Shown here: one piece after another, positions 4,467 to 58,954 of the stretch | Layout of the letters: each line of letters starts with the position of its first letter | How positions within the stretch are numbered: the first letter of the stretch is position 1 | From: Candidatus Blackallbacteria bacterium | Lineage (GTDB): Bacteria > Cyanobacteriota > Sericytochromatia > UBA7694 | Length of the DNA stretch: 64,000 nt | Assembly: GCA_051715345.1 (NCBI GenBank) | Contig: JBPXJQ010000029.1 | Coordinates: 37,240-101,239 of the forward strand | Direction of reading: 5' to 3' | The notes under the pieces: generated by a model | What the model was told of the DNA's origin: nothing | What the model saw: the letters and a program-made list of their open reading frames with translations, nothing else | Databases searched by the model: none | Translations under genes and position numbers: made by a program

Positions 4467-4499
4467 GTTCGACTCGATTTAAACTCCCAAGGACATTTT

Positions 4500-4847
4500 A
4501 TGAGTGAAGTGACAATTTTTGACCGCGTTTTGGCAGGTGAAATCCCCGCCCAAGTGGTCTACGAAGATGAACATGTCTTGGCCTTTCAAGACATCATGCC
4601 CCAGGCACCTGTACATGTCTTGGTGATTCCCAAACAAAAAAAACGCTGCTACGACGATTTGGCCGATACCAACGCCGAAGACGTCGGGCATCTCTTTGTG
4701 GGAGCTGCCCGCGCCGCCCGTGCTTTGGGCTTGGCCGAAAATGGCTACCGTGTGGTGATCAACCATGGCCGTGATGGTCAACAGACAGTGGACTATATCC
4801 ACCTGCATCTGCTGGCGGGCCGTCAGATGATGTGGCCTCCCGGCTAA
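4500..4847 (+). CDS. HIT-family (histidine triad) nucleotide hydrolase, HinT-like
   Basis: C-terminal histidine triad DYIHLHLLAG (HxHxHxx). RBS AAGGA sits before ATG 4500. Confidence 0.75.
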   Translation: MSEVTIFDRVLAGEIPAQVVYEDEHVLAFQDIMPQAPVHVLVIPKQKKRCYDDLADTNAEDVGHLFVGAARAARALGLAENGYRVVINHGRDGQQTVDYIHLHLLAGRQMMWPPG

Positions 4848-4860
4848 AACGCCTCTTTTT

Positions 4861-38512: not shown

Positions 38513-38522
38513 AGGCCTTGAT

Positions 38523-40205: not shown

Positions 40206-41191
40206 AAGTATTTGTCACGGGTGGGGGCGGATTTTTGGGGCTGGCAATTGTAAGGCAATTAATTGCTCAGGGCCATGACGTGGTCAGTTATTCTCGCGGT
40301 GTTTATCCCGATTTAAACGCGCTGGGTGTCGAACACCGCCAAGGAGATCTCGATGCTCCCAATCGCTTGGTTGCGGCTCTCAAGGACTGTCAGGCTGTGG
40401 TGCATGTGGCTGCCAAGGCCGGTATCTGGGGGAGTTATGAATCGTTTCACAGTGCCAATGTGCGCGGTACCGAAAACGTGATCTCAGCCTGTCAGCAGGC
40501 GGGCATTTCCAAATTGGTCTATACAAGTTCACCGAGTGTGGTTCACAATGGCCAAGATCTTGAAGGCGTAGACGAAAGCACGCCTTACCCGACCCATTTT
40601 GAGGCCTTTTATCCCCAGACCAAAGCGTTGGCTGAGAAAATGATTTTACAGGCCAACAGTGAGTCACTTGCCACTGTCTCGCTGCGGCCCCATATCATCT
40701 GGGGGCCGGGTGATCCGCATTTTGTGCCCCGGTTGGTGGCCCGCGCCAAAGCTGGTCGCTTGCGTCTGATCGGCAACCGCGATCCCAAAGTTGACACCGT
40801 TTACGTCGAAAATGCTGCAACCGCGCATGTCTTGGCATTAAACAAACTTGAGCCAGGAGCCACAATCGCAGGCAAGGCCTATTTTATCACCCAAGACCAG
40901 CCCGAAACGGTCTCTCAATTTGTCAATCGGATTTTGGACGCTGCGGGCTTGCCTCCTGTTACCCGCCGTGTCCCTGTGCGCGTGGCTCATTTGGCTGGTT
41001 CCGTGCTGGAATCCGTTTACCGGGCCTTCCATTTGCCCGGTGAACCGCCCATGACCCGCTTTATGGTCAGCCAGTTTTCGACCTCCCATTGGTTTGACAT
41101 TTCAGCGGCTCGCCGAGATCTGGGCTATGAACCTGTGATCTCGACGGAAGCTGGCATGATGATGCTCAAACGTTGGTTACAATCGACTTAG
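40202..41191 (+). CDS. oleD: NAD(P)-dependent 3-beta-HSD / epimerase-family reductase, OleD-like
   Basis: VFVTGGGGFLGLAIVRQL Rossmann motif and YPQTK (YxxxK). Start overlaps the oleC stop. Confidence 0.6.
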   Translation: MKVFVTGGGGFLGLAIVRQLIAQGHDVVSYSRGVYPDLNALGVEHRQGDLDAPNRLVAALKDCQAVVHVAAKAGIWGSYESFHSANVRGTENVISACQQAGISKLVYTSSPSVVHNGQDLEGVDESTPYPTHFEAFYPQTKALAEKMILQANSESLATVSLRPHIIWGPGDPHFVPRLVARAKAGRLRLIGNRDPKVDTVYVENAATAHVLALNKLEPGATIAGKAYFITQDQPETVSQFVNRILDAAGLPPVTRRVPVRVAHLAGSVLESVYRAFHLPGEPPMTRFMVSQFSTSHWFDISAARRDLGYEPVISTEAGMMMLKRWLQST

Positions 41192-43134: not shown

Positions 43135-43892
43135 ATATCTATGCCATTCGGGCCATTTACCAATTTGAATTGGCGCGTTTTTTTCGCACCCTGTTTCAGA
43201 GCATTGCCTCTCCGGTGATCTCGACCTCGCTCTATTTTATTGTCTTTGGCTCAGCGATTGGTTCACGCATGACTGAGATCGATGGCACGAGTTATGGGGC
43301 TTTTATAGTACCGGGTTTGATCATGCTTTCGGTTTTGACTGAAAGTATCTCCAATGCTTCGTTTGGGATTTATATGCCCAAATATTCAGGTACGATATAT
43401 GAGGTTTTGTCTGCGCCCGTTTCTGCTTTTGAAATTGTCACAGGTTATGTGGGCGCAGCAGCCACCAAGTCAATCATCTTGGGGGCGATCATTTTGGCCA
43501 CAGCACGACTTTTTGTTGATTTTACGATCTTACATCCCCTTTGGATGGGGGTCTTTTTGGTTTTGACTTCTCTAACCTTTAGCCTCTTTGGCTTTATAAT
43601 TGGGATTTGGGCAGATGGATTCGAAAAATTACAGATCATTCCGATGATGATCATTACGCCCTTGACCTTTTTGGGGGGCAGTTTTTATTCGATCCATATG
43701 TTGCCGCCTTTTTGGCAAAAACTGACTCTGTTTAACCCCATTGTCTACCTCGTCAGTGGCTTCCGCTGGAGTTTTTACGGGGTTTCAGATGTGGGAGTGG
43801 CTTTGAGTCTGACCATGATCTCCGTCTTTCTCAGCGTGAGTTTGTTGACTGTGTGGCTTCTGTTTAAAACAGGCTATAAAATCAAAAACTAA
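43131..43892 (+). CDS. ABC-2-type transporter permease
   Basis: Six predicted transmembrane helices. ATGA overlap with the ATPase gene. Confidence 0.7.
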
Positions 43893-45192
43893 GGATCTGC
43901 ATTTTCCAGTTTTTGGGCCCAGGTCTGAAGGGCCTGAAACTGGGCTTGTAGCAGTTCAGGATCGTCTACCAGACTTTTAAATTGGTGATAATCCAAGCGC
44001 ACTGCCTCAATCCAGTTTTCGCTTTCAAAATCCAAATGGGTAAATAGCCAGACGTACATCACATGCCCGTAAGTATAATGGCTGTGTAGGGTCTGTAATT
44101 CAGATAAACTGGTCCCCCCGTCCAAGAGGCAATGGGGGGACTTTTCGTCAGCCAAAATCAGTTTCATGACAGGTTGATCTTTGCCACAGGTATAGGGTTG
44201 GCTTGGCGAAAAAAAACTATTGCCAAAGGTGCGACAACTCAGTGGGCGGTGTGTGTAAATACCACAGGTTTCAGCTTTGGTTAAAAACGGGCAAGGGTCC
44301 TTGCGCAGGGCTTGGGTGAGTTTATAAAAAGCCTGGTTGCCGTTATTCGTTTGCAATTGATCGAGATACTCATCAAAATAGAACAGGGTTTTTTCGATAT
44401 AATCCGCATTTTTAGCCATGTAGAGGACAATCTCAGCTATCAGTCTTTTTTGTTCTTGCAGGGGCAAACCTTGGCTGAGTGCCTCAAACATCATCTCCCA
44501 TTCCAGCGGGCGAATACAGAGGTCAAAGCCATTCCCCAATTTGCAGCAATCTGCACAGCCGCTTGGACAGCTCAAGGGGTGGGCGGCATAGGCTTTTTGC
44601 ATAGGTGCTTCCATTTTTTTGTAGAGCAAAGCCAGTGCTTGCTTGGCTTGAATGGGGGCTTGGGAGATGTAAGCTTGGTACTGCTGAAAGACATCAAAAT
44701 AAAATGCATCTTGGTGATCTGATGCCAATTGGGACACCCACGGATTGCTCAGCCATTGAACTTGAAGCAAATCGCGTGTACCACGGAGATAACTGTGTAA
44801 TTGGCTGCTCAAGCGCGTAGGGTGGTTCACCAGATAGGTCAAGCTGGGGTGGCTAAGAATCTCCTGAAAATCAAAATTTTCCAAACAAAATAAGGCCAGT
44901 TCTGGCATAGAGTCGATGACCAAGATCGGCACTTCAGGGGGTTTATGAGCCAGCAAGCGCTTCAAATACTCGCCCGTGCCCAAACCATAAACCACATAGC
45001 CCCAATTGACGCCAGACGGTGGGAGAAATGCCTCGGATAATTCCCATGTTTGTGTGGAAAATCCAAGCAATGGCTGTTGTTCTGTCCCCTTCAACTGAAA
45101 CTCTACTGAAGGTGTTAGAACATCGAAGACAGATTGCGTGTCTGGGTGAAATTGTTTGAGGACAGCAAAATTATTTTTTAAAAATCTTGTCA
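43889..45192 (-). CDS. YkgJ-family (UPF0153) cysteine-cluster protein with an N-terminal extension
   Basis: CPSGCADCC...CIRP and [24 protein letters not shown] match the YkgJ zinc/iron-chelating motif. ATG start at MTRF; the TTG start at 45247 is the alternative. Confidence 0.5.
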
Positions 45193-45255
45193 TAATTATT
45201 AGTGAAATATTTGTAAAATGAATTGAATAAAATACAAAGAGCTTCAATCATAACA

Positions 45256-45280
45256 TGTGATCCAATTTGTTAGGATCACA
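45256..45280. promoter_or_regulatory. Perfect inverted repeat TGTGATCC-N9-GGATCACA in an AT-rich divergent intergenic region
   Basis: Read directly at 45256-45263 and 45273-45280. Confidence 0.35.
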
Positions 45281-45433
45281 ATTAAATAAATATTCTTAGG
45301 GAAAAATAAGATTTAACTCAATTAACCATTTCTTTACCTTTATTTATCCGATAGATAAGAATTATTTGGCGTTCATTGTCAGATAAGCTAAGTATCAAAT
45401 CAAGTGTTTTTCAAATAGAGGAGTTTTTATTAA

Positions 45434-45925
45434 ATGAATATCAATACCGTTAACACTGCTGCCGCTGTTATCAATCCCGCTACCCCTGCGGCTCCCAAGA
45501 AACCCGAAACGACGACCAGCCCCTCTTTAAATGAACTTAAAGGGGACAGCCTCGAACTCAAAAAAAGCCCAATGAATGCCGCCCTCCGGGGTGGACTGAT
45601 TGCCGCTGGTGCAGTTGGCGTGCCTGGCTTAATCTACGCAGGCAGTTCCAACGGGGTTGAAAAAGTATTTGCACTTTATTTGGCTGGTACGGGTGCTGCC
45701 GCCGCAGGCGTGACCGGTGCTGTTGCAGGTGCTGTGGCTTCCCAAGTCACCGACAGTCCCTGGAAAGGGGCTTTGTTGGGCGCTGTGACCGGTGCAGTGA
45801 CCGGTGCCGCTGCTCTCGGTGCCATTGGCCGCAGCTTGAATGGGGCTGCAACCGGTGCAGCCATAGGTGCTGTGGGTGGTTTGATCGGTGGCGTTGCCGG
45901 TACCTACGCCAGCCAGAAGAAATAA
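45434..45925 (+). CDS. Glycine/alanine-rich glycine-zipper membrane protein
   Basis: Repeated GxxxG/AxxxG motifs (GAVAGAVASQ, GAVTGAVTGAAALGAIG). RBS AGAGGAG before the ATG, terminator directly downstream. Confidence 0.55.
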   Translation: MNINTVNTAAAVINPATPAAPKKPETTTSPSLNELKGDSLELKKSPMNAALRGGLIAAGAVGVPGLIYAGSSNGVEKVFALYLAGTGAAAAGVTGAVAGAVASQVTDSPWKGALLGAVTGAVTGAAALGAIGRSLNGAATGAAIGAVGGLIGGVAGTYASQKK

Positions 45926-45937
45926 AATTTTAACAGC

Positions 45938-45966
45938 AAAAGCCCCTCGTTTGAGGGGCTTTTTTC
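45938..45966. terminator. Bidirectional intrinsic terminator: AGCCCCTC-GTTT-GAGGGGCT followed by TTTTTT
   Basis: Perfect 8-bp GC-rich stem, tetraloop, T-run. A-run upstream, so it also serves the convergent minus-strand gene. Confidence 0.75.
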
Positions 45967-45987
45967 TATGCAAATGCGACCCTGGAT

Positions 45988-47409
45988 TTACCAGTTTTGA
46001 TCGCCAATACAATACAGGTAGCCTCCGGCTGCGACCAAGATATAACCCTGTTTTGAGACAGCAGGTGAGCTAAAAATCGCATCCCCGATGGTAGGATGGA
46101 AATGAGTGGCTCCTCCGCCCGTGGCAATTCCCTCTGGAAACTTGCTTCCAGCCAGCTTTGGTTCGCCCAGATACAGAGCCCAACCGGCTTTGCCTTTCGC
46201 TGCATCAAGGGTATACAGACCCCCATCATGACGGGGAATAATCACCACCGAGCCACTCAGGGCGGGAGAAGCCCATTGCGGAAACATCGGTACACCGACG
46301 GAAGTACTGCCCAGGGCTTTGCCCGTTTCGGCATTCACGGCAATAACCTCGTTTGAATAGGGCTCGGCATAAATCAAAAGGTCATTGTACAAAACGGGTG
46401 AAGTGCGGATATTGCCCCAATTCTGACGCTCGCCATCTGATTCTGCTTTCCAGAGCAACTTGCCCGTGAGCAAATCCAAGCGGATCAAGGCGGGTGTCGG
46501 GTACAAGTTATCGCGGGCAAAGCCAATAATCGCACTGTTTTTATACAAGGTTGCTGAGCCATAGATCTCAATGGGTGTGAGGTATTGTTCGTTGACGTAT
46601 TCGGGATAAAGGCTGAGAATATCTTTTTCCCAGCGGATTTTGCCCTTGAGACTGAGTCCATAGATTTTCCCATGGGTGGTACCAATGACAAGCCGGTCTC
46701 CCTGCAGAGCTGCCCCTGCGCGAATGCTGCCTTCTAGTGCCGTTTTCCAACGGATTTTTCCCGTATTTGCATCCAAGGCAAAAAACAGCCCTTGGGCTGT
46801 GCCAACATAAACCACTTGATTGTGGACCAAGACCTGGAAAGTTTCTGAGCCCAATTCTTGGCGCCATTTTAATTCACCCGTACGGGCATCAAGGGCCCAA
46901 ACAGCGCCTTCGTCGCCCGTGGCAAAGATCTGTCCATTTTCATAGGCCATGCCGCTGGCATCTGCGCGAGCGGGTGCATACCAATTGCGTGCGCCCGTCT
47001 TGAGATCAAAGGCATAAACACCGTCAGTCAGTAGACTGTCACTTTCATTCCCTGCTTCATAATCGGGGATTTGCCAGAGATAGCCTGAGCTGCTGATAAA
47101 AACCTGTCCATCAGCAATCAGAGGTGAATTGAGCCATCCTGCAACACCCACAGCTTGTTTCCAACGAATTGCAGGGTTTTGGATCGTCCGGCTAGACGGG
47201 CCTTGGCCAGTGTGACTGATATTTTGTTGAAACAGAGGCCAGTCCTGAGTAGGGGTGACTGGGTTGGCCTGGGAAGGGTTGACCAGTGCCGTTAAGAGCC
47301 ATCCTGATAGACTCAGAGCCAAAACGAGGGGGGATATTGACAAGATTTTTTTCACAATAACTCCTTTTAAAATCAGCAACATACGTCCATGACAAACGTA
47401 ACGACTCAA
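45988..47409 (-). CDS. PQQ-repeat beta-propeller protein, secreted
   Basis: Repeated ...DG.V..........G...A.D..TG...W... blades (YAFDLKTGARNWY, VWALDARTGELKWRQ, FFALDANTGKIRWK). N-terminal signal-like segment. Confidence 0.6.
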   Translation of the reverse strand: MSRYVCHGRMLLILKGVIVKKILSISPLVLALSLSGWLLTALVNPSQANPVTPTQDWPLFQQNISHTGQGPSSRTIQNPAIRWKQAVGVAGWLNSPLIADGQVFISSSGYLWQIPDYEAGNESDSLLTDGVYAFDLKTGARNWYAPARADASGMAYENGQIFATGDEGAVWALDARTGELKWRQELGSETFQVLVHNQVVYVGTAQGLFFALDANTGKIRWKTALEGSIRAGAALQGDRLVIGTTHGKIYGLSLKGKIRWEKDILSLYPEYVNEQYLTPIEIYGSATLYKNSAIIGFARDNLYPTPALIRLDLLTGKLLWKAESDGERQNWGNIRTSPVLYNDLLIYAEPYSNEVIAVNAETGKALGSTSVGVPMFPQWASPALSGSVVIIPRHDGGLYTLDAAKGKAGWALYLGEPKLAGSKFPEGIATGGGATHFHPTIGDAIFSSPAVSKQGYILVAAGGYLYCIGDQNW

Positions 47410-47583
47410 CTGTTCACAGGCTCATTTTGCCATGAAAACTGTGGGGCTGAGATGATTTCGGCAGCCGGAAAGAAAAAAGAGGCTGGATTTTTAGACTTTA
47501 ATTAGTGTAAAATGTACATATATTCGATCGCTTGGGCTTCCAATTCCGGTATACTTGAAGTTGAATGAAAGGCAGATGGGCAA

Positions 47584-48522
47584 ATGTCAGAGATGTTGGC
47601 TTTAATCAAAGAAAAGGGTGAAGTTCAGCTGCGAACGACCCGTCGGCCCACCTGTGATGCCTCTAATCACGTCCTGATACGCGTTAAGATGGCGGGGATC
47701 TGTCGCACAGATTTGGCTGTGATGCGTTCCCAATTGGCCACCCCCGAGCCCCTGATCGTGGGCCATGAATTTGCAGGGGAAATTGTAGAAATCGGAGATC
47801 AGGTTCACTCTCTTCAAGTGGGAATGTCCGTGACTGCAATGCCGCTCTTGCCCTGCGGTCTCTGTTCGGCCTGTGTGGAAAAACGGACTGAAAGCTGTTA
47901 CTGCGGCAAGATGTTGGGGCTGCATGTTTCAGGGGCTTTTGCTGAATTTGTCTGTCTACCCGCTGAACAGGTCTATGCATTGCCTCAACACTGGCCTACT
48001 GCCTTGAGTTGGGAGACGGCAGCCTTCAGCGAACCCGTTGCCGCCGCTGCTGCCATTCTCAAAGCGGATATTCACCCCAAGCTGCAGGGCGCAATTGTGG
48101 GACAGGGCCGAATTGCCGAATTGAGCTTGCGGCTCTTAAACAGTCAGGGTTTTGAACGGATCGAAATGTATGCCCAACCCCAAGATTTACCCAGCAATGG
48201 CTTTGATTGGTTGATCGAAACAGGGCTCCGTGCCGCATGTGTCAATCCCCTGCTCACAGCCTTGCGTCCGAGGGGCCTGCTTTTGCTCAAATCGCGGCAT
48301 TTGCCCACTTTGCAATTTGATCCCCAACTTTTGATTTGCAAAGAAATCCGATTACAAGGCGTCTATTATGCGGCTTTTCCTTGGGTGTTGAAGTGGTTGG
48401 CTGAAAACGCAGAGCGCGTACAGGATTTATTTGGTCCGGTATATCCTGCTCAGTCCTGGCAAAGCGCTTTAGAAGCCGCTGAATCGGGGGAATCACTCAA
48501 AATCTTTTTAAGTTGGCCCTAG
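47584..48522 (+). CDS. Zn-dependent medium-chain dehydrogenase, threonine-dehydrogenase/ADH-like
   Basis: GICRTDLAVM...GHEFAGEIVEIGDQV catalytic-zinc signature. First gene of the coupled five-gene operon. Confidence 0.7.
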   Translation: MSEMLALIKEKGEVQLRTTRRPTCDASNHVLIRVKMAGICRTDLAVMRSQLATPEPLIVGHEFAGEIVEIGDQVHSLQVGMSVTAMPLLPCGLCSACVEKRTESCYCGKMLGLHVSGAFAEFVCLPAEQVYALPQHWPTALSWETAAFSEPVAAAAAILKADIHPKLQGAIVGQGRIAELSLRLLNSQGFERIEMYAQPQDLPSNGFDWLIETGLRAACVNPLLTALRPRGLLLLKSRHLPTLQFDPQLLICKEIRLQGVYYAAFPWVLKWLAENAERVQDLFGPVYPAQSWQSALEAAESGESLKIFLSWP

Positions 48523-48524
48523 CG

Positions 48525-50399
48525 ATGTGTGGGGTAATTGCCGTGATCGGCAACGAAACCATTTCGATCAACCAACTTGCAGCAGGCGTCGATGCCTTGG
48601 CCAGCCGTGGACCCGATGGTAAGGGCCTGTGGCGTTCAGAGAATCAACGTGTGGGTTTGGGCCATGCCCGACTTGCCACCCGCGATCTGTCAGGCGGGCA
48701 GCAGCCCCTGCATTGTTCCCAACGCCAATTGAGTGGGGTTTTTAACGGTGAATTTTATGGGGTAGAGCCCTTGCGCGCAGACTTGGTAAAAAAGAGGTAT
48801 CATTTTTTTACCAATTCAGACAGTGAAGTTGCGCTTTATCTCTATGCAGAATACGGTTTGGATTGCCTGCGTTTTTTGCGCGGAGAATTTGCAATGATTC
48901 TCTGGGATGACCAAAAACAGGAATTGATCGCACTGCGCGATCGCTTTGGCATCAAACCGCTGTTTTTTTCCAGGCAAGCAGATACTTTGCTCTTGGCTTC
49001 TAAGGCTTCTGCCCTCTGGGCGATGGGCGTTTCACCCGCTTGGGATCTGAATGGCCTGGCCCAAATTTGCAGTTTTCAATACCCTTTGCCTGAACAATCG
49101 CTTTTTGCAAATATTCAGACTTTGCCACCGGGCCACGGTTTGCGTTGGCGTTCAGGTCAACTTGAGTTGTTTTGTTATTGGGATCTGGACTATCCCGAGG
49201 CCAAAGACCTTCGGCCCGAGTCAGAATCCCGTTTGATTCCCGAATTACAATCTGCAATCCAGACTGCGGTTGAACTGCGCAGAGTGGCAGACCTGCCCAT
49301 TTGCTCATATCTCAGTGCGGGCCTGGACTCCAGTTTGATCACTTCTTTGCTCAATCAAGTGGCACCGTCTCCTGCTTTTTGTGTGGGTTTTCCTGGTTGG
49401 GAGGGCGACGAAGGTCCTTTGGCTCAAATCACGGCAGATGCCTTGGGGATTCAGTTACATACCCTGCAACTCGATTTTTCCACGCTTCAGCAGGCCCTGC
49501 TTGAGACCATTCGCGTGACCGAAGGACCCTGTATCAACCCCCATGTGGTTGCCCGCCGTTTGCTTTGTCAAAAGATCCGTGCGGCGGGATTCAAAGTCGT
49601 CTTAACAGGGGAAGGGGCAGATGAACTTTTTGGTGGCTACGCCCATCTGCTCGAAGATCTGTATCCCGGTGGGGATCGCCACGCAGGCTTGGTGGGCATG
49701 CATTTGCCTTTGGGGTCGGAGCCAGACCTCTCACTTTTAGAGCGCGAATGGGGACACATTCCCACCTTTATTCAGGCCAAAGCGTCACTGTGTCTACGCT
49801 TGCGCAGTTTGCTCAATCCCGATTTTCGCTCGGCATTTCCTTTCCCAGAGATGCAAATGCGGCTCTTGGCCGCTTTTCCTTCACAGGTACTGGAGGGGCG
49901 TCATCCACTTCACCGTTCGCTCTATCTCTGGAACAAGCTGGGTTTGGCTGGGTATATCTTGCCCACCGTCGGAGATGGGGCTGAAATGGCAGAAGGCCTG
50001 GAAGGGCGTTTGCCTTTTCTTGATCATCTGCTTTTTGAACGGGTGCGAGGCTTGCCCCCAGAACAGCTGATGGCCCCTGGCCTGGAAAAAGCCCTGTTAC
50101 GCAAATTGGCCCAACCCTGGCTGCCACAATCTGTATTAAATCGCCCCAAAGCACCTTTTTTGGCGCCCTCACTTTTGTCCCACAGATTGCAGGCTGAACC
50201 TGAATCCCACCCAACCACGCAAGCGGCTTTTTTTCCAGAGCCCTTGCCGGATTTTGTCGATCGCTCCGCTTTGGCTCAACGTTTACGTTGGTTGGCTTAC
50301 GCTCCGTCAGAAGAACATCAGAGCTGGGAGCCCCCCTTGCTGCTCTTGTCCTCGCTGTGTCAAATGCATCAACTTTTTTTCTCAAACAAGGAGTTATAA
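48525..50399 (+). CDS. Asparagine-synthetase-B-family glutamine-dependent amidotransferase
   Basis: N-terminal MCGV (Cys nucleophile). Class II GATase residues HARLATRD, NGEFYG, SDSEV, GEFAMILWD. PP-loop SYLSAGLDSS. 628 aa, longer than AsnB. Confidence 0.75.
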   Translation: MCGVIAVIGNETISINQLAAGVDALASRGPDGKGLWRSENQRVGLGHARLATRDLSGGQQPLHCSQRQLSGVFNGEFYGVEPLRADLVKKRYHFFTNSDSEVALYLYAEYGLDCLRFLRGEFAMILWDDQKQELIALRDRFGIKPLFFSRQADTLLLASKASALWAMGVSPAWDLNGLAQICSFQYPLPEQSLFANIQTLPPGHGLRWRSGQLELFCYWDLDYPEAKDLRPESESRLIPELQSAIQTAVELRRVADLPICSYLSAGLDSSLITSLLNQVAPSPAFCVGFPGWEGDEGPLAQITADALGIQLHTLQLDFSTLQQALLETIRVTEGPCINPHVVARRLLCQKIRAAGFKVVLTGEGADELFGGYAHLLEDLYPGGDRHAGLVGMHLPLGSEPDLSLLEREWGHIPTFIQAKASLCLRLRSLLNPDFRSAFPFPEMQMRLLAAFPSQVLEGRHPLHRSLYLWNKLGLAGYILPTVGDGAEMAEGLEGRLPFLDHLLFERVRGLPPEQLMAPGLEKALLRKLAQPWLPQSVLNRPKAPFLAPSLLSHRLQAEPESHPTTQAAFFPEPLPDFVDRSALAQRLRWLAYAPSEEHQSWEPPLLLLSSLCQMHQLFFSNKEL

Positions 50400-51170
50400 A
50401 TGAGCCAAGCCACTCCCTGGTGGGAGACCTTTTACTCCCATCACTATGCCGAAGCGATGTTTCAATTGGATCGCGATTATCTCAACGCTGCCTGTGAATT
50501 CATTCTCGATAAACTGCAATTGCAGTCAGGACAAACGGTCTTGGATCAGTGTTGTGGGATCGGCAATATCAGCCTTTTGCTGGGCGAAAGGGGCCTTTCT
50601 GTGACAGGCATCGAGCAAAGCCTGAGCTATGTGCGACAGGCCCAAGAGCGCGCCCGCTTGGGAGATTTGGACCAATGCCAATTTATCGCAGCAGATGCTT
50701 TCAGCTATGTCTCGCCCGCCCCACTGGATGCCGCTTTTAATTGGCACACCAGTTTTGGCTATACCTCAGATGACCGCCAAAACAGGCGCATGTTGGAAAT
50801 GGCCTATGCTTCGCTCAAACCCGGAGGTTATTTTCTCTTGGATTATCTGAACCTGCCCTATGTTTTCAAACATTTCCGCGCTACCATGATTACCTATCAT
50901 CAGACCCAAGAAGGAGATGTAGAGGTGATTCGGGAATCCAGCCCCGATCTGGTCTCTGGGATGTTGAACCAACTTTGGACCTTCGTCTATCCTAATGCAG
51001 AGCGTCGTCTGGTACAACAGACGGGTACACGCATGTATTTGCCCTATCAATTGGGGGAGCTGCTCAAGCAAAGTGGTTTTGAGCTGATTGACTATTTTGG
51101 TAGTTTAGCGGGTGACCCCCTCTCAATTGACACTTCCCGCTGTATTTGCTTGGCCCGGCGGCCTGTGTGA
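50400..51170 (+). CDS. Class I SAM-dependent methyltransferase
   Basis: Motif I VLDQCCGIGNISL. Starts immediately after the AsnB-like stop. Confidence 0.7.
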   Translation: MSQATPWWETFYSHHYAEAMFQLDRDYLNAACEFILDKLQLQSGQTVLDQCCGIGNISLLLGERGLSVTGIEQSLSYVRQAQERARLGDLDQCQFIAADAFSYVSPAPLDAAFNWHTSFGYTSDDRQNRRMLEMAYASLKPGGYFLLDYLNLPYVFKHFRATMITYHQTQEGDVEVIRESSPDLVSGMLNQLWTFVYPNAERRLVQQTGTRMYLPYQLGELLKQSGFELIDYFGSLAGDPLSIDTSRCICLARRPV

Positions 51171-52021
51171 GCGCATTGCTGAAAGCGAACTTACCCCCAA
51201 GCCACGGTTCGATTCTGTTGCAGCCGGAAGCCTTTTACCGGGGTGAACTGGCCTTACTTACGGCCACATCCGCGACTGTGAAATTGGTTCAGGGGCTTCA
51301 CCAGCGACTCCACCAAGCCCTTCTTCCAGCCCCTACTTTTGCCACGGCTCATCACATTTTAGCCAGTGAGCTCTTGCGCCACCGTCTCCATCATTTGCGC
51401 AGGCAACTTTACACAGATAAGGCTGTTTTAAAGACTTTGGCTGCAATTGTATCTGAATTGGTTGAGGAACTGAGTTGGCCTGAGTTGCCTGCTGTGGATT
51501 TGCCCCGCCTTCGGGCAATCGTCCCGCAGATGCATCAAATACCGGCCGCTGCAGACGCCTTTTCGGCCCACCGCGATACCTGGTATGCCAATCCTGCAGC
51601 CCAGATCAACCTATGGATTCCCTTGGGGGATTATTCTTCCTCCCAGACTTTTGTCTTTTATCCAGCCTGCTTTTCTCGCCCTGTTGAAAATAATTCTGAG
51701 AGCTTTGACTACGAACAGTGGCAGGCCACCGTCGGTTGGCAAAGCTTGCAAAAACCTGAGTCAGCCATTTATCCCCAGGCCTTGGATGTGCCAATTGTGG
51801 AGCCGCTGGGATTTGCCTGTGAAGCTGGACAGCGGCTTTTGTTTTCGGGCTCACACCTGCATCAGCCTTTGCCAAATAACAGCAACCAAATTCGCTTTAG
51901 CCTCGATATGCGTTTGGTGTGTCGGCGCGATTTTGCCGAACAGCGCGGTGCTCCTCAAATAGATAATCGCTCCAAAGGCAGTACCTGGCCTGAATTTGTT
52001 CCACTGGAGGCTTGGCAATGA
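51146..52021 (+). CDS. PhyH-family Fe(II)/2-oxoglutarate dioxygenase-like protein
   Basis: AHRDTWY (HxD) ... NLWIPLGD ... GSHLHQ pattern typical of the phytanoyl-CoA-dioxygenase family. TTG start overlaps the methyltransferase end. The stop overlaps the next ATG (ATGA). Confidence 0.5.
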   Translation: MLGPAACVSALLKANLPPSHGSILLQPEAFYRGELALLTATSATVKLVQGLHQRLHQALLPAPTFATAHHILASELLRHRLHHLRRQLYTDKAVLKTLAAIVSELVEELSWPELPAVDLPRLRAIVPQMHQIPAAADAFSAHRDTWYANPAAQINLWIPLGDYSSSQTFVFYPACFSRPVENNSESFDYEQWQATVGWQSLQKPESAIYPQALDVPIVEPLGFACEAGQRLLFSGSHLHQPLPNNSNQIRFSLDMRLVCRRDFAEQRGAPQIDNRSKGSTWPEFVPLEAWQ

Positions 52022-54933
52022 GTGAACATTTCCGCTCTTTTGTAGACGCCCTCTCTCAGGTTGTTTTGCGTCAGCCGGAGGCCCCGGCTTTTGTCAGTGC
52101 AGAAAGCGCTTTGAGTTATGTCCAGCTCTGGGAAGAATCTGGACGGGTAGCTGCTTTTTTGGGCTCAACAGGGCTGCAACCTGGCGAGCGGGTGGGCATT
52201 TGTTTGCCCAGATCTGTGGCCTGGATTATTGCCTTGATTGGCGCATGGCGAGCAGGCATGGTGATCACGCCACTCGATCCCTTGGCTCCTGCTGAGCGTT
52301 TGGAGTGGCAACTCAAACACGCCACCCTGGCCACGGTCTTGGGGCAAGGTTCACCACCGGCGGGAATTCCACTTTCAAGCTGGCTCGATTTGGCCCTGGC
52401 ATGTGATGCTGAACCACTGAAAGATAGCCATTTGTTGCAAGAGGGCGACCCAGCCTATTTGATCTTTACCTCGGGTTCAACGGGCCTTCCCAAAGGGGTT
52501 TTACTGCCCCACCGGGGCCTCTTGCCGGTTTTAGAGGCCCAAATAGCGGCCTTTGGTTTGGGGCCAGGCTGTCGCAGTCTCTGGCTGCTTTCGCCGCTCT
52601 TTGATGCTTCGCTTTCCGATTTGGGGACCACCCTCTTGGCAGGTGCCACCCTTTATATGGACACTGGCCTGGAAAGAGATCTTGACCGCTTTAAACAAGC
52701 CCTCGCAAAATGGCAGATCACCCATCTCGATTTACCACCTTCGTTATTGCCTCTGCTCAATCCCTCCGATTTTCCCAGCTCTTTTCAGACCTTGATTCTC
52801 GGGGGGGAACCCAGTGACCCCGCCCGTCTGCGCATCTGGGCTGAAAATTTCAAGCTAATCAATGTCTATGGCCCCACCGAAACAACCATCTGTGCCTCCC
52901 TGTGTGTGGTTGATCAGAACTGGCAAGTGCCTTTGTTGGGGCAGCCTTTGCCAGGCTTTGGCTTTGCTGTTTTACAGCCCGATCAAACCCCTGTGGATCA
53001 AGGCCAAGATGGAGAATTGTGGATCAGTGGTCCCGGTTTGGCATTGGGATACGTCAATGCTTCACGCTTGACCCGCGAACGCTTCCGTGAGTTAAATGGG
53101 GTGCGTTTTTACCGCAGTGGCGATCGGGTTCAGCTTTTGCCAGGGGGGGAATTTGCTTTTCGGGGCCGACTCGATCGCCAACTCAAATGGCATGGCCAGC
53201 GCCTGGAGCCCGAAGAAATTGAAGCTGTGCTTCTGCAAGTGCCGGGTTTGACCCGTGTAGCCGTGTTTTTACACATCCAAGCCGGACAAGATGACGGCGT
53301 TTTAAGTGTTGCCTTTCAAACCCAAATGCCTGAATGTGTTGAGCAGGGCTTTTTGCAGACAACTTTAAAAGCCTGCTTGCCAGAATGGATGTTGCCTGTG
53401 CGCTGGTTTCAACCCGTCGAATGGCCACTCACAGCGACGGGCAAAACAGATTATGAAGCCTTGCAACACTTAGCGTTTGAAACGGATCTCACTTCTGAGC
53501 CCATAGAATCTCCCGAAGAGGCCCTGTTTCTCAGCCTTTGGCGTGAAATTTTGCATCGCCCGGCTCTCAGTGCCAGCGAAGCTTTGGGTGCACATTCATT
53601 GCAAAAATTGGAGTTTTTGGCCCGCTGCAGTTTACAAGGTTTGCATCTCAATCCCGAACGCCTGAGTACCTGTGATTCGGTCCGACAGATTGTACAGATT
53701 CAACACCAAACAGAAGTCAGTGGTTTGCCCGTTGAACATTTATTGCCCGACACCCAGCTCAGCCCTTCCTGGCGACGTTTTTTAGCCCAATCTCAGACCC
53801 ATGCCGTTAAAGGCAAAGGGGAGCCTCTATTAACTGGTGCCACTGGATTTCTGGGCCGCTGGCTTTTGCGCAGCTTGCTCGAAGAGGGCAAAGGCCCCGT
53901 TCACTGCTTGGTGCGGGCCCGCAATGTCGAAGAAGGTTTGGAACGGCTTTTACAGGCCCTAAAGAGCACTGGGCCTTGCAAAAATGACTGGGCGAAACGG
54001 ATTGTTCCCTGGTGTGGTGACCTTGAAGCTGAACAGTGGGGATTGCCAAATAGTTCTTGGAAACGTCTGGCATTGGCATTGGATCGGATCATTCACAGTG
54101 GGGCTCGCGTGCACCTCAGCGAGCCTTATGAGCGCCTCAAGGACCCCAATCTTAAAGGCACTCAGACGGCGCTTAAATTACAGGCTTCAGGCCGCAGCAA
54201 AGCCTTACATTATGTTTCGACCCTCTCGGTTTTTGTTGGCAGTGATCGCAATCAAGGTGTGGCTTATGAAGACGACGATCTCTCTCAGACCCGATATCTG
54301 TTTGGGGGTTATGCCCAAAGTAAGTGGGCGGCAGAGGCTTGGCTGCGCCAAAGTGGGGGCCAAGCGGGACCGCTGCAGATCTACCGCTTGGGCTTGATTA
54401 CTGGCGACACGCAGATTGGCTGGTTTCCTGAAAAAGATTGGTTTCAATGGTTGACACAGGGATTGGTCAATTTGGGTGGCATACCCCAAGACATCGACCC
54501 TGCCTGGGCCCTGGATTTAACTCCTGTGGACTATGCTGCTCGGGCCCTGTTGGCGCTTGCCAAAAAGCCTTTGCCGGGTCTTCATACCTATCATCTTGCC
54601 AATCCCAAACCACTCCTACTGGGGCAGTGGCTCACAGCTTTACAGGCCTTTGGCGTGCGTTTAGAGCGCCTGCCCCGTGCTGAGTGGCATTTGCGTATGC
54701 AGGCAGCCTTGCAAAGCTGTACAGGCCCTGAAAGTGCATCTGCACTCTTGGCCCTTTGTCGCCTGATGGGTGAAGAACAATACAAACATTTGCGCAGTCT
54801 TGATCTTTTTCAAACCACGGGCATTCGCTTTGATACCCAAAACGCGGATACTCTCTTACACCCGCAGGGACATTTTTGCCCAGCACCTGAACCTGAATTA
54901 CTTCAGCGCTACCTCATTCAGATGCTGAATTAG
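52018..54933 (+). CDS. NRPS-like carboxylic-acid reductase: adenylation, peptidyl-carrier and terminal thioester-reductase domains (A-T-R)
   Basis: A-domain motifs LIFTSGSTGLPKGV (A3), FDAS (A4, Asp present), NVYGPTETT (A5), YRSGDRV (A7), GRLDRQLKWHGQRLEPEEIE (A8), ATGKTD (A10). Carrier LGAHSL. R-domain TGATGFLGRWLL and YAQSK. RBS GGAGG before ATG 52018. Confidence 0.75.
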   Translation: MSEHFRSFVDALSQVVLRQPEAPAFVSAESALSYVQLWEESGRVAAFLGSTGLQPGERVGICLPRSVAWIIALIGAWRAGMVITPLDPLAPAERLEWQLKHATLATVLGQGSPPAGIPLSSWLDLALACDAEPLKDSHLLQEGDPAYLIFTSGSTGLPKGVLLPHRGLLPVLEAQIAAFGLGPGCRSLWLLSPLFDASLSDLGTTLLAGATLYMDTGLERDLDRFKQALAKWQITHLDLPPSLLPLLNPSDFPSSFQTLILGGEPSDPARLRIWAENFKLINVYGPTETTICASLCVVDQNWQVPLLGQPLPGFGFAVLQPDQTPVDQGQDGELWISGPGLALGYVNASRLTRERFRELNGVRFYRSGDRVQLLPGGEFAFRGRLDRQLKWHGQRLEPEEIEAVLLQVPGLTRVAVFLHIQAGQDDGVLSVAFQTQMPECVEQGFLQTTLKACLPEWMLPVRWFQPVEWPLTATGKTDYEALQHLAFETDLTSEPIESPEEALFLSLWREILHRPALSASEALGAHSLQKLEFLARCSLQGLHLNPERLSTCDSVRQIVQIQHQTEVSGLPVEHLLPDTQLSPSWRRFLAQSQTHAVKGKGEPLLTGATGFLGRWLLRSLLEEGKGPVHCLVRARNVEEGLERLLQALKSTGPCKNDWAKRIVPWCGDLEAEQWGLPNSSWKRLALALDRIIHSGARVHLSEPYERLKDPNLKGTQTALKLQASGRSKALHYVSTLSVFVGSDRNQGVAYEDDDLSQTRYLFGGYAQSKWAAEAWLRQSGGQAGPLQIYRLGLITGDTQIGWFPEKDWFQWLTQGLVNLGGIPQDIDPAWALDLTPVDYAARALLALAKKPLPGLHTYHLANPKPLLLGQWLTALQAFGVRLERLPRAEWHLRMQAALQSCTGPESASALLALCRLMGEEQYKHLRSLDLFQTTGIRFDTQNADTLLHPQGHFCPAPEPELLQRYLIQMLN

Positions 54934-56176: not shown

Positions 56177-58954
56177 TCATGATACAGGCTTATGAGAGAG
56201 GTGGGAATCGCTCAACAATTTTAAGATCTCGCTGTATTCGAATTGCTGGGCCCATTGATTGAGCAAATGCCCCAGTTCGGGGCTGTGGGGAAAAATGGCG
56301 GCGATGGATTTTTCCAAGGCCTCCATATAACCGAGTTCGGCTGCTTCGCGCAGATTTGCAAGCTTGGCAGAGGGAATGCCTGCGAGAATGGCAACCCAGT
56401 CTTTTTGTTGCAGTGTCTGGGTTTCCGCATAACGGTAATTTAAACCCAATTGTTCAGCAATCAAACTCCAGATTTCGTGCTCTTGAATGGGCTTTCGGAT
56501 AAACAGATCACAGCCTGCAGCCAAGGTTTTGGCTTGTTCATCTGAAAACGCACTGGCGGTCACAGCCACGATCACTGTTTTCTGATAACCCGCTTTAATC
56601 AGGTCTTTGATCTCCCGAGCGGCCTGATAACCGTCCATAATCGGCATGCGCATATCCAGCAGAATCAAGTGGGGTTGCCAAGATTTAAATTTGTCCACTG
56701 CAACTTGACCATTTTCGGCCAGTTGTATTTGAAATCCCAATGGACGCAGATAGTGTTCGAGTAAATGGCAATTGTGGGGATCATCATCAACGATCAAAAT
56801 TCGGATTTCGCCTTGGTCAGGTGCCAGACCCAGGATTTTTTTCGGCATTTGAATGACAGGTTGGTTGGGGCCGCTGAGCAAAACAGGGATCTGGAATTCA
56901 AACCGTGACCCTTGGCCCAAACTACTTTGAACTGCCAGTTTCCCGCCCATTTTTTCAATCAATTGTTGGCTGATGGCCAAACCCAAGCCCACCCCTTCGC
57001 GGCTGCGACCCAGACTTTGCAATTGCACAAAGGGCTGAAAAATACTTTCCAACTGATCCGCTGAAATCCCCAGGCCTGTATCTTCAACCAAAAAATGGAG
57101 TTGGTATGTTTGCGGTGCCGTCAAAGCCCGGGCTTTGACCTTGAGACTGACCTTCCCACTTTCTGTGTATTTGAGCGCGTTGTTGAGCAGATTAATCAAA
57201 ATCTGACGCAATTGTTTTTCATCACATCGAATCAAGCGCGGGGTGTTCAGGGCCATCTCTACTTTGAGTTCGAGCCCTTTGGCCTGGGCCTTAAATTGCA
57301 ACATCTCCTGCAAATCGTGAACCAGCAATTGTAAATCGCAATTGTCTTCATGTAATTCCAAGTTTCCCGCTTCAATTTTTGCCATTTCCAGGACATCGTT
57401 GAGGAGTTTAAGCAGGTGATCCCCACTGTTGACAATAATATTTAATTTATCGCGGTGTTCAGTGGCCAGTCCATGGGCATTGCGCAAAAGTCGGGAGAAG
57501 CCAATAATTGAATTTAAGGGTGTTCGTATCTCATGGCTCATATGGGCCAAAAATTGGCTTTTGGCTTGGTTGGCTTGGGCCAATTGGGCTGTGCGTTGTG
57601 AGACTTTTTGTTCAAGATCGAGGTTTTGGGATTGCATCAGGTTGTAAAGCCGGGTATTTTCGAGTGATATGGCTGCTTGGCTAGAAAGCAATTCGAGAAT
57701 TTGTAGTTCGTGGGGGCTGAAATGCCCAGCCTCGGTGGTGTTTTCCAGATAGAGCACGCCACTGAGTTGGCCTTTGTTGAGAATCGGAAGACAGAGCACT
57801 GCTTCTGGTTCACAGGCCAGTAAATAAGCGTCTTCGCTAAAGGGGTGATCGGCGGTTAAATCGTTGAGCAGTACGCGCTGCTTGCTCTGAATCACGGCTT
57901 CAACAACCGCTGAGGAAACCATCCGGTTTTTGTAAAGACTTTGGTGCAGGATATAAATATCTTTGTTCCACTCCGCGTGGGCCTCTATCCACCAAGTTCC
58001 GCCTTCAGGCAAAAGCAATGATACTTTTTGGGCTCCCGAATATTCCATCATCAAGGTCAGCAATTTTTCTAAAAAATGATTCAGACTGATCTCACTTGAA
58101 AGGGCCTGTGAGGCTTTCAGCAGACTGACCAGGTCGAGATCTTCGGCTTTGATTTCGGCCAGACTGGGAAGCCTGGTGTCTGGGTCGGGCAGGGGCTGAG
58201 GCGCAAGCAATAAAAAAGGATATTGGTGTTCCAATTTTAATTTCAGTGCAACAATTTCCCAATTGCAATACATTTGATAAGCAGCCTGCAAATAGATTTC
58301 GGCGATGCGGATATGCCCCAAGCCAAAATAAAACTGGCCAGCGAGCTCTTGGGCCAGGGCCTCTAATTGGGGCACATGGTGCAATTTGGCCTCTTCAATC
58401 GCTTGATCATATAGGCGCATGGCCATCGGGATTTGATGATGGCAGTGGGCCCGCTCGGCTTCAATCAGACTGGTTTCGGGTAAATAATTGCCTTTAAATT
58501 TGGCGGTTGCCCTTTTTAATTGGCTGAGTATTTTTTGGATAGTGGGTGCCAATCGCTTACTTGAACCCGTCTCACGGCAATATTTTAATGCGACCAAGGC
58601 CAAGCTGGAGCGGGCTTCGATGACCCAAATCGGATCTGGGTGTGTTGAGAGATTGAGCAAACAGCTTTCAAGCGCTTGCAAATGTGGAGACGATCCATGG
58701 TGATCGAGCAAGTAGGCACAGACGAGGGTCTGGGCGCTTCTCATTGGTTCAGGGGCCTGTTCTGCCTCGGGTGTTTTCAGCAGATGAAAGCAGGCTTCAA
58801 GCAGAGGCACACGCAAATGGGGTTGTTTAAACATACCCCAGAATTTTAACAGTTTTGATGTTCGGGCTTCAAATTCTGTTTTCAGGATCAACCTTTTATC
58901 TCTTTCTGCTTGGCTGAATTGATTCTCCTCCCTTACACTGAAGCGAGATGACAT
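56177..58954 (-). CDS. Hybrid sensor histidine kinase (N-terminal helical/GAF region, HisKA, HATPase_c, two receiver domains)
   Basis: H-box HMSHEIRTPLNSIIG. G-boxes. Receivers ILIVDDDPHNCHLL...LLDMRMP and a second LVHQQTG...LLDMRMP domain. The start may be a downstream Met, since ATG 58954 overlaps the divergent SNF2 start. Confidence 0.75.
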   Translation of the reverse strand: MSSRFSVREENQFSQAERDKRLILKTEFEARTSKLLKFWGMFKQPHLRVPLLEACFHLLKTPEAEQAPEPMRSAQTLVCAYLLDHHGSSPHLQALESCLLNLSTHPDPIWVIEARSSLALVALKYCRETGSSKRLAPTIQKILSQLKRATAKFKGNYLPETSLIEAERAHCHHQIPMAMRLYDQAIEEAKLHHVPQLEALAQELAGQFYFGLGHIRIAEIYLQAAYQMYCNWEIVALKLKLEHQYPFLLLAPQPLPDPDTRLPSLAEIKAEDLDLVSLLKASQALSSEISLNHFLEKLLTLMMEYSGAQKVSLLLPEGGTWWIEAHAEWNKDIYILHQSLYKNRMVSSAVVEAVIQSKQRVLLNDLTADHPFSEDAYLLACEPEAVLCLPILNKGQLSGVLYLENTTEAGHFSPHELQILELLSSQAAISLENTRLYNLMQSQNLDLEQKVSQRTAQLAQANQAKSQFLAHMSHEIRTPLNSIIGFSRLLRNAHGLATEHRDKLNIIVNSGDHLLKLLNDVLEMAKIEAGNLELHEDNCDLQLLVHDLQEMLQFKAQAKGLELKVEMALNTPRLIRCDEKQLRQILINLLNNALKYTESGKVSLKVKARALTAPQTYQLHFLVEDTGLGISADQLESIFQPFVQLQSLGRSREGVGLGLAISQQLIEKMGGKLAVQSSLGQGSRFEFQIPVLLSGPNQPVIQMPKKILGLAPDQGEIRILIVDDDPHNCHLLEHYLRPLGFQIQLAENGQVAVDKFKSWQPHLILLDMRMPIMDGYQAAREIKDLIKAGYQKTVIVAVTASAFSDEQAKTLAAGCDLFIRKPIQEHEIWSLIAEQLGLNYRYAETQTLQQKDWVAILAGIPSAKLANLREAAELGYMEALEKSIAAIFPHSPELGHLLNQWAQQFEYSEILKLLSDSHLSHKPVS

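Follow-up and report, generated by a model that had tools for sequence, protein, structure and literature searches.

A 64,000-nucleotide stretch of a Candidatus Blackallbacteria genome (assembly GCA_051715345.1, contig JBPXJQ010000029.1, positions 37,240 to 101,239, forward strand; here called the window) carries a tightly packed, five-gene operon at positions 47584 to 54933 that ends in a single-module nonribosomal peptide synthetase (NRPS)-like reductase with adenylation, thiolation (carrier), and reductase domains (A-T-R). Judging from sequence comparison, these five genes appear to be the Sericytochromatia version of a widespread, uncharacterized cassette that is found in many phyla, has one invariant substrate pocket, and is usually accompanied by a gene for a NadR-type kinase/nucleotidyltransferase. 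The explanation that fits best, to which we give slightly less than an even chance, is that one specific amino acid is converted to an aldehyde, then to an amino alcohol, then to a phosphate ester, and finally to a nucleoside diphosphate (NDP) conjugate. The genes of the operon are as follows.

47584 to 48522, plus strand: first gene, Zn-dependent medium-chain dehydrogenase/reductase (MDR), 312 amino acids (aa) (ADH_N; AlphaFold2 [AF2] model and Foldseek)
48525 to 50399, plus strand: AsnB-family glutamine-dependent amidotransferase, 624 aa (GATase_7 and Asn_synthase; TIGR01536)
50400 to 51170, plus strand: class I S-adenosylmethionine (SAM)-dependent methyltransferase, 256 aa (Methyltransf_25/31/23)
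51167 to 52021, plus strand: PhyH-fold Fe(II)/2-oxoglutarate (2OG) oxygenase, 284 aa from GTG (AF2/Foldseek; the mechanical open reading frame [ORF] runs from TTG 51146)
52018 to 54933, plus strand: single-module NRPS-like A-T-R reductase, 971 aa (AMP-binding and NAD_binding_4), with the A domain at about 52018 to 53470, the T domain at about 53500 to 53720, and the R domain at about 53815 to 54930

All five ORFs were found where an initial annotation of this DNA had placed them, and its description of five co-directional, almost gapless genes held, with gaps of 0 to 2 nucleotides (nt) and overlaps of 4 nt. The dehydrogenase TAG ends at 48522 and is followed by an ATG at 48525 (2-nt gap), the AsnB-like TAA ends at 50399 and is followed directly by the methyltransferase ATG at 50400 (0-nt gap), and the oxygenase stop and the A-T-R start share an ATGA at 52018 to 52021. 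The oxygenase does overlap the end of the methyltransferase gene, as had been proposed, but probably not from the TTG codon originally named. A GTG at 51167, in frame, shares GTGA (51167 to 51170) with the methyltransferase stop and gives a protein of 284 aa, equal in length to several of the closest orthologues; judged by this comparison, GTG 51167 is the likely start, and TTG 51146 marks only where the ORF could begin at the earliest. At the other end of the operon, the stops of the A-T-R gene and of a convergent REC-GGDEF gene overlap by 4 nt (54930 to 54933), so there is no room for a terminator between them.

The gene order dehydrogenase, AsnB-like protein, methyltransferase and oxygenase (where present), and A-T-R recurs in at least 10 phyla. 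Carriers belong to the Sericytochromatia, Blackallbacteria, Melainabacteria/Obscuribacterales, Planctomycetota, Alphaproteobacteria (including Micavibrio), Myxococcota, Bdellovibrionota, Chloroflexota, Vulcanimicrobiota, and Uhrbacteria of the Candidate Phyla Radiation (CPR), and all those found are metagenome-assembled genomes (MAGs) or metagenome contigs. Among the loci compared, L001 is from Blackallbacteria, L005 from the MAG “Cyanobacteria bacterium REEB67,” L006 and L019 from Planctomycetota, L007, L010, and L012 from Alphaproteobacteria including Micavibrio, and L009 from a CPR Uhrbacteria MAG. The closest relatives of the window A-T-R (95 to 67% identity) are in Candidatus Sericytochromatia and Blackallbacteria MAGs, and four such loci (L001 to L004; 55 to 95% protein identity) keep the whole five-gene order together with the overlapping junctions. 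The next A-T-R homologues are about 40% identical and have the same arrangement in other groups. Because the junctions are tight and the same order is found in distant phyla, the arrangement is more than chance.

All-versus-all clustering of the ORFs of 17 independent loci returned exactly six recurrent families and nothing else. The Zn-dependent MDR dehydrogenase, the AsnB-type amidotransferase, and the A-T-R protein were present in every locus with enough sequence and form the invariant core; the methyltransferase and oxygenase are optional tailoring enzymes, present together in 10 of the 17 loci, with the methyltransferase alone in 2 and neither in 5. Outside this set, L090 carries the oxygenase but no methyltransferase, with a NadR-like gene beside its cassette, and in one homologue (P0047, from L091) the methyltransferase is fused to the C terminus of the R domain. 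The window has both the gene order and the pocket code, DASD.G..CK, by which the cassette is defined. When species-representative genomes were scanned with the dehydrogenase alignment, matches below about 30% identity lacked the cassette and were generic MDR enzymes, so that the association holds specifically for this dehydrogenase subfamily. Two cultured candidates, Streptomyces niveiscabiei and Mycobacterium kansasii, were rejected as carriers since their dehydrogenase homologues lie in unrelated contexts. In the former (L092, 8335 to 10942), a gene of the dehydrogenase subfamily (38% identical) overlaps one for an aromatic amino acid ammonia-lyase, in a cluster that also includes genes for an SfmD-like peroxidase, an acyl carrier protein, a ketosynthase, and an acyl coenzyme A dehydrogenase; at least one further biosynthetic context thus exists for the subfamily. 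In L090, which is from another Sericytochromatia MAG, the cassette adjoins dapD-, dapE-, and aminotransferase-like genes and a gene for an M15 peptidase (1429 to 6235). The hint of diaminopimelate metabolism given by these neighbors was set aside, as it was not seen in other loci.

The A domain of the A-T-R protein has the motifs TSGSTGLPKG, NVYGPTE, YRSGD, GRLDRQLKWHGQRLEPEEIE, and ATGKTD and scores 309 bits against TIGR01733, slightly below the cutoff of 317. The initial annotation had pointed to an A4 Asp (FDAS) and an A10 Lys (ATGKTD) as hallmarks of an alpha-amino acid-activating domain, and alignment with GrsA bears this out: D196 and K476 align with GrsA D235 and K517, and all the adenylation motifs are present. 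The R domain scores 269.6 bits against TIGR01746 (cutoff, 213.35), matches NAD_binding_4 with an E value of 1e-56, and has the short-chain dehydrogenase/reductase (SDR) motifs TGATGFLG and YAQSK (Y765-x3-K769). In the carrier domain, the motif LGAHSL places S527 (codon at 53596 to 53598) on the GGDSL serine of relatives, and Pfam PP-binding gave no match. Neither PP-binding nor AMP-binding_C was matched in the window protein or its closest relatives (P0001 to P0008), and both are kept in more distant members; the T domain and the C-terminal subdomain of the A domain have diverged in the window lineage far enough to escape Pfam. A crude tblastn search of the window found no phosphopantetheinyl transferase. 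The protein is a true member of the class of NRPS-like reductases.

When aligned directly with GrsA (1AMU), the window A domain has the Stachelhaus code DASDIGVICK, which was not found in searchable literature. The pattern DASD.G..CK is present in 17 of the 17 locus proteins readable as one ORF and in 120 of the 120 best database homologues (34 to 95% identity), one of which has Asn at position 278, the fourth of the code. Changes across the family are conservative and confined to positions 299, 322, and 330. Since the code is invariant, the A-T-R family should share one substrate. The code is also the same with or without the methyltransferase and oxygenase genes, and both enzymes should therefore act after adenylation. 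The best solved matches to the pocket region were the Phe-activating GrsA and TycA and the A1 domain of ApnA (Arg and Tyr), which shares I299, G301, V322, and I330. Ser239, Cys331, and the single Asp278, read from this alignment, suggest a long side chain with a cationic or hydrogen bond-donating group. The pocket presumably resembles codes for Tyr or beta-hydroxy-Tyr with a T278D change as well as codes for Arg and Lys, a likeness that does not decide the substrate. The same holds for the resemblance to ApnA A1, and assignment of the substrate by Stachelhaus code was dropped.

The five enzyme classes proposed in the initial annotation held at the superfamily level, whereas “Tdh” and “PhyH,” taken as specific labels, did not; both describe superfamily resemblances only, because the scores fall below the equivalog thresholds. 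The sole Pfam match of the dehydrogenase is ADH_N (E value, 2e-27), and against threonine dehydrogenase equivalogs it scores 124 bits for NF003808 (cutoff, 380) and 99 bits for TIGR00692 (cutoff, 458). Its AF2 model (mean predicted local distance difference test score [pLDDT], 94.6) superposes on complete two-domain Zn-dehydrogenases, with Foldseek template modeling (TM) scores of 0.79 to 0.87 to Tdh, sorbitol dehydrogenase, and HpsP. The Zn ligands C40, H61, E62, and E150 are invariant in 41 homologues, as are R176 and K236-S237-R238, and a G-x-[GNS]-R stretch stands where GxGxxG is usual. On this model, the protein is a complete MDR enzyme with a catalytic Zn site. Sequence and model together place it in the Tdh/polyol dehydrogenase clade with a compact Rossmann domain, and the resemblance to Tdh itself lies in the fold and the Zn site.

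For the second gene, an AsnB-family protein with its Cys nucleophile and PP-loop had been claimed, and both are present. The protein scores 360 bits against TIGR01536 (cutoff, 267) and has GATase_7 and Asn_synthase domains. Cys2 (MCG), R49, N74-G75-E76, D99, the PP-loop S(G/A)GxDS (SAGLDS in the window), and GEGADE are conserved in 16 family members; these residues therefore predict glutamine hydrolysis and amidation of an adenylated acceptor. Among solved structures, the trichostatin hydroxyamidotransferase (7ylz) is the closest and Escherichia coli AsnB comes next; there are also partial matches to the XrtA/PEP-CTERM amidotransferase model.

The methyltransferase has no specific family assignment. 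Its weak matches in the Protein Data Bank (PDB) are to uncharacterized methyltransferases, phosphoethanolamine N-methyltransferase, and glycine N-methyltransferase. The oxygenase scores 20.6 bits against Pfam PhyH, below the gathering score of 22, and its AF2 model (pLDDT, 92.8) finds PtlH, SyrB2, SnoN, PHYHD1, and MysH as top Foldseek matches, the first four with a probability of 1.0 and TM scores of about 0.5. H135-x-D137, H232, and R243-x-S245, corresponding to the iron triad and the 2OG anchor, are invariant in 35 homologues. From its PhyH-type fold and these residues, the protein is predicted to be a hydroxylase-type Fe/2OG enzyme. The family is very small, with 44 homologues found among 5.8 billion proteins.

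A partner of the cassette suggests processing beyond an amino aldehyde. Of the 17 independent loci, 14 have a NadR-type gene (otherwise annotated only as AAA_28) next to the cassette, as do L090, L091, L108, L110, and L113. The cassette-linked proteins consist of an HxGH nucleotidyltransferase and a P-loop kinase without the helix-turn-helix (HTH) domain and score 242 to 296 bits against TIGR01526 (cutoff, 341). They keep the motifs HxGH, ISGT, and Walker A GPESTGKS, and solved NadR structures are their best PDB matches (E values, 1e-27 to 3e-31). Moreover, 27 of the 120 best A-T-R homologues carry the kinase domain as a C-terminal fusion to the R domain. In the alphaproteobacterial locus L007, the separate NadR-like protein (13375 to 14355) keeps the HxGH domain, but its Walker A is degenerate (LQGGDAAT); GPESTGKST is intact in the kinase that is fused to the A-T-R protein. 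Since Walker A is lost in the separate copy and kept in the fusion, both activities are retained, with the kinase beside the R domain. The locus is also a clear example of a domain function moving between neighboring genes.

The window has a gene of this type at a distance from the operon.

6844 to 7902, minus strand: NadR-type protein with an N-terminal HxGH nucleotidyltransferase and a C-terminal P-loop kinase (AAA_28), among unrelated genes

Its product is 36 to 53% identical to the cassette-linked proteins (tblastn) and scores below the NadR models (242 bits for TIGR01526, cutoff of 341; 133 bits for PRK08099, cutoff of 201). The alignment begins after the HTH region, and the motifs of both the nucleotidyltransferase and the kinase are kept. 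On average, the protein is 46% identical to cassette-linked and 33% identical to stand-alone copies, and it fell inside the cassette-linked group in 85 of 100 bootstrap neighbor-joining trees. In the neighbor-joining tree itself, 18 of the 19 cassette-linked proteins lie in one clade that holds 2 of the 17 stand-alone copies (Fisher P = 5e-7). Going by these alignments, the protein is probably the unlinked partner of the operon.

From the observed gene set, catalytic residues, conservation, invariant pocket, and fusions, we infer the substrate, the order of steps, and the product as follows. The AsnB-like protein would convert the distal carboxylate of a probably dicarboxylic amino acid to a carboxamide. 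The A domain would adenylate the alpha-carboxylate of one alpha-amino acid whose side chain is long and polar or cationic, the amino acid would be loaded on the T domain, and the R domain would release it as an alpha-amino aldehyde, which the dehydrogenase would reduce to an amino alcohol. The P-loop kinase of the NadR-like protein would then phosphorylate the new primary hydroxyl, and its HxGH domain would join the phosphate to a nucleotide, giving an NDP-linked (probably ADP-linked) amino alcohol. In the window version, N-methylation by the methyltransferase and hydroxylation by the oxygenase may follow once the A domain has selected its substrate. This five-step scheme is the simplest that uses every conserved activity once. 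The pairing of a kinase with an HxGH transferase is the logic by which NAD, FAD, coenzyme A, ADP-heptose, and CDP-choline and CDP-ethanolamine are made. Processing after release is suggested because the kinase, and elsewhere the methyltransferase, is fused to the R domain, and this is the strongest indirect support for the scheme. Phosphoethanolamine N-methyltransferases act on a phospho-amino alcohol, and we also counted the weak similarity of the methyltransferase to these enzymes in favor of the pathway. A more specific version seems less likely to us. In it, a pathway shared by many phyla would tie reductive release of the NRPS-like kind to a kinase/adenylyltransferase derived from NadR and would make a new ADP-linked, amidated amino alcohol, optionally N-methylated and hydroxylated.

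Several observations weigh against this pathway. The role given to the AsnB-like protein is an assumption made so that all genes are used. R domains can carry out a four-electron reduction alone, and the dehydrogenase may therefore have another job. The carrier domain of the window lineage is the divergent one that Pfam PP-binding does not match, and no transporter, transferase, or resistance gene that might show the fate of a product recurs with the cassette in the 17 loci. Strict monophyly of the cassette-linked NadR-like proteins is weak, as all 19 grouped together in 12 of 100 bootstraps and at least 15 in 48 of 100. The window copy lies 40 kb from the operon, and neither adjacency nor fusion occurs in the window, L001, or L003. 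Many NadR-like proteins of 40 to 49% identity stand alone in metagenome contigs scanned with the NadR-like alignment. HxGH transferases of the NadR type normally act on nicotinamide mononucleotide (NMN), and the partner keeps the Trp-x-x-Trp stretch of NadR; it could thus be an ordinary NAD salvage enzyme.

These last points lead to the main alternative, a link to NAD metabolism, which we consider improbable but better placed than the other alternatives. Here the partner would keep its nicotinamide riboside kinase and NMN adenylyltransferase activities, and the dehydrogenase, AsnB-like, and A-T-R proteins would make or remodel a precursor or analogue of pyridine nucleotides, with the AsnB-like protein supplying the carboxamide in the way that NadE does in NAD synthesis. 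In its scores, its best PDB matches, and its NMN-site features, the partner is clearly of the NadR type; many similar proteins stand alone, like housekeeping enzymes; and PP-loop chemistry is common to AsnB and NAD synthetase. In addition, an NrtR-type regulator (NUDIX and WHD_NrtR; L090, 15226 to 15990, minus strand) lies two genes from the cassette in a Sericytochromatia MAG, but it does so in this one locus only. The linked NadR-like proteins score below the equivalog cutoff and group apart from most of the stand-alone copies. The A domain keeps the equivalents of Asp235 and Lys517 and a Phe/Tyr/Arg-type pocket, so that an alpha-amino acid is expected, and ORF clustering of the 17 loci found no ribosyl- or phosphoribosyltransferase in the cassette. 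By reasoning only, we found no plausible chemistry that would lead from an alpha-amino aldehyde to a 3-carbamoyl-pyridine, and de novo nicotinamide synthesis from an amino aldehyde was rejected on the same ground.

Somewhat less probable again is a reading in which the NDP-amino alcohol is an activated intermediate that an unlinked transferase moves to a lipid or glycan, as in Kennedy- or teichoic acid-type pathways. The kinase and HxGH logic is that by which CDP-choline, CDP-ethanolamine, and CDP-glycerol are formed, L005 has additional CTP_transf_like genes close to its cassette, and AsnB-family proteins are common in polysaccharide loci, with which the partial XrtA/PEP-CTERM amidotransferase matches agree. 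However, no glycosyl-, phospho-, or acyltransferase, flippase, or transporter recurs in the 17 loci, and the flanking genes are different in every phylum.

The initial annotation had raised a diffusible signal of the amino aldehyde or pyrazine type as one possibility and had linked it to the adjacent two-component/cyclic di-GMP module; in this reading, a free alpha-amino aldehyde released by the A-T-R protein would dimerize or cyclize to a pyrazine- or pyrazinone-type signal sensed by the neighboring histidine kinase and REC-GGDEF protein. The A-T-R architecture with an amino acid-type A domain is in keeping with this, reductive amino-aldehyde chemistry is known for PvfC and AusA-type enzymes, and the two-component and GGDEF genes are convergently adjacent in the window, L003, and L004. 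That neighborhood, however, is kept only in these nearest relatives (89% identity) and is replaced by unrelated genes in the Blackallbacteria locus L001 and in every other phylum. A free signal also leaves no role for the universal dehydrogenase and AsnB-like protein, nor for the kinase fused in 27 of 120 homologues, and the scores against the AusA and MxcG equivalogs (given below) are far below cutoff. The end product of the earlier proposal was incomplete, as the NadR-type partner points to further processing; we think a signal of this kind quite unlikely, and the tempting link to cyclic di-GMP signaling was removed as unsupported. Finally, chance adjacency of a threonine dehydrogenase, an asparagine synthetase, and a Lys2-like reductase is very hard to credit: housekeeping families are indeed the best general annotation of each protein and the AsnB-like protein passes the generic TIGR01536 cutoff, but start and stop codons overlap, synteny is conserved across at least 10 phyla, the scores fall far short of the cutoffs for the Tdh, Lys2, and CAR equivalogs, and the family has an invariant pocket code that did not turn up in searchable literature. 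A role in anti-phage defense was likewise rejected, the sole PADLOC match being that of a generic methyltransferase to mad2.

The region upstream of the operon had been described as a divergent promoter region of 174 bp.

47410 to 47583, no strand: divergent intergenic region with conserved blocks (upstream alignment of the window, L003, and L001)

The length is correct when counted from the mechanical TTG start of the upstream gene, which encodes a PQQ_2 beta-propeller. Scans for a consensus (sigma-70) promoter and for terminators, however, did no better on this DNA than on shuffled sequence. Conserved blocks are nonetheless present: alignment of the window with L003 and the distant L001 showed GGCTGGATTTT at about 47481 to 47491, TTAGTGTAAAATGTACATATA at 47502 to 47522, and GGTATACT at 47548 to 47555. 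These are invariant in all three even though the flanking genes are just 55 to 69% identical at the protein level, and they probably represent a candidate promoter and/or operator of the operon. No Rfam family reached its gathering threshold anywhere in the window, and a riboswitch or other known RNA was rejected on that basis. Farther upstream (43889 to 47409) are genes for a secreted-looking PQQ_2/BamB-like beta-propeller, which also matches the ACSF4 beta-propeller model, a 163-aa Gly-zipper protein, and a CxxCxxCC-domain protein. The arrangement of this trio is kept in Sericytochromatia and Blackallbacteria (L001 and L003) but not in other phyla, and its members were rejected as parts of the system for this reason.

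Elsewhere in the window, three coupled genes on the plus strand (37610 to 41191) resemble oleB-oleC-oleD of olefin/beta-lactone hydrocarbon synthesis; their products are an alpha/beta hydrolase, an AMP-binding protein (692 bits against the olefin beta-lactone synthetase model; cutoff, 900), and a 3beta-hydroxysteroid dehydrogenase-type reductase (441 bits against the OleD model; cutoff, 580). The hybrid kinase beyond the REC-GGDEF gene (56177 to 58954, minus strand; GAF-HisKA-HATPase-REC) is one 925-aa ORF in the window and two overlapping genes of 624 aa and 298 or 269 aa in L003 (14160 to 16816) and L004, where the split is probably a frameshift or assembly error of those contigs. The window also encodes a homologue of phosphoribosyl pyrophosphate synthetase with an N-terminal extension (35731 to 36852, minus strand), a T2SSE/PilB-type ATPase with an MshEN domain (9135 to 11105, minus strand), and an SNF2-family helicase of 1,135 aa (58948 to 62355, plus strand).

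If the proposed pathway is correct, the cassette would establish nucleotide-linked amino alcohols as a new class of metabolites. They would be made in at least 10 phyla, among them CPR bacteria with reduced genomes and relatives of the cyanobacteria that do not photosynthesize. An ADP-linked amino alcohol would be a dinucleotide-like molecule and could be a new cofactor, a storage form, or an antimetabolite that mimics an aminoacyl-adenylate or NAD. Many carriers are in groups with predatory or epibiotic bacteria (Bdellovibrionota, Micavibrio, Myxococcota, Melainabacteria, and CPR). Even without the product, the invariant pocket, the compact content (four to six genes), and the informative fusions make the cassette a tractable target for heterologous expression.

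The initial annotation had matched the gene set to no known pathway, and none emerged from NCBIfam, PADLOC, Rfam, PDB names, or searchable literature; we found no description of the cassette in that literature, no name for it, and no curated family model. Over the A-T-R protein, the best NCBIfam match is MxcG of myxochelin synthesis (432 bits; cutoff, 2,300), and AusA (300 bits; cutoff, 2,500), Lys2 (249 bits; cutoff, 1,030), and CAR (146 bits; cutoff, 1,300) are likewise far from their cutoffs. Like MxcG, AusA, PvfC, and LtxA, the window protein combines an A domain, a putative carrier, and an SDR-type reductase for predicted reductive release as an aldehyde or alcohol. Unlike them, it has no condensation (C) domain or second module, and its partners are a dehydrogenase, an AsnB-like protein, and a NadR-like protein rather than siderophore or pyrazinone genes. 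Clusters of the pyrazine, pyrazinone, or pvf type are recognized by either a second module or C domain, as in AusA, or an N-oxygenase partner of the PvfB type, whereas a domain search of the five operon products found neither a condensation domain nor a diiron N-oxygenase domain.

The AsnB-like protein shares its class II glutaminase domain with the Cys at the N terminus and its adenylating PP-loop domain, as well as a predicted non-aspartate carboxylate substrate, with TsnB9 (7ylz), LtsA/AsnB1 (meso-diaminopimelate amidation), and WbpG/PseA. About its first 375 residues only align to solved structures, TsnB9 being the closest, and the systems of TsnB9, LtsA/AsnB1, and WbpG/PseA lack an A-T-R or NadR-like gene. 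A precedent for phosphorylation of such a product is found in chloramphenicol synthesis, where the A-T-R NRPS CmlP makes an amino alcohol and a P-loop enzyme, chloramphenicol 3-O-phosphotransferase, phosphorylates its primary hydroxyl. There, however, phosphorylation serves self-resistance, no nucleotidyl transfer follows, and the gene sets are otherwise unrelated to the cassette.

The closest parallel in logic is the fungal ATRR glycine-betaine reductase together with the Kennedy pathway, in which, as we propose here, a reductase gives an amino alcohol that a kinase and an HxGH transferase then process; the enzymes of the Kennedy pathway are choline kinase and CTP:phosphocholine cytidylyltransferase. 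ATRR differs in having two R domains and in lacking Asp235, the residue to which an alpha-amino group binds, and its kinase and transferase are unlinked housekeeping enzymes, whereas the kinase of the cassette is NadR-type and is clustered with, or fused to, the reductase. NadR itself (ribosylnicotinamide kinase/NMN adenylyltransferase) has the same two-domain architecture as the cassette partner and the same motifs, HxGH, ISGT, and GPESTGKS. The partner departs from it in lacking the HTH domain, in scoring below the TIGR01526 cutoff, in its linkage to an NRPS-like cassette, and in a kinase half that can be fused to the R domain. Each enzyme comes from a well-known superfamily, and the combination matches no characterized pathway; on present sequence comparison, the conserved coupling to a NadR-type partner appears to be unprecedented and, if the proposed pathway is correct, would make the cassette the first example of an NRPS-like reductase that feeds a dedicated kinase/nucleotidyltransferase.

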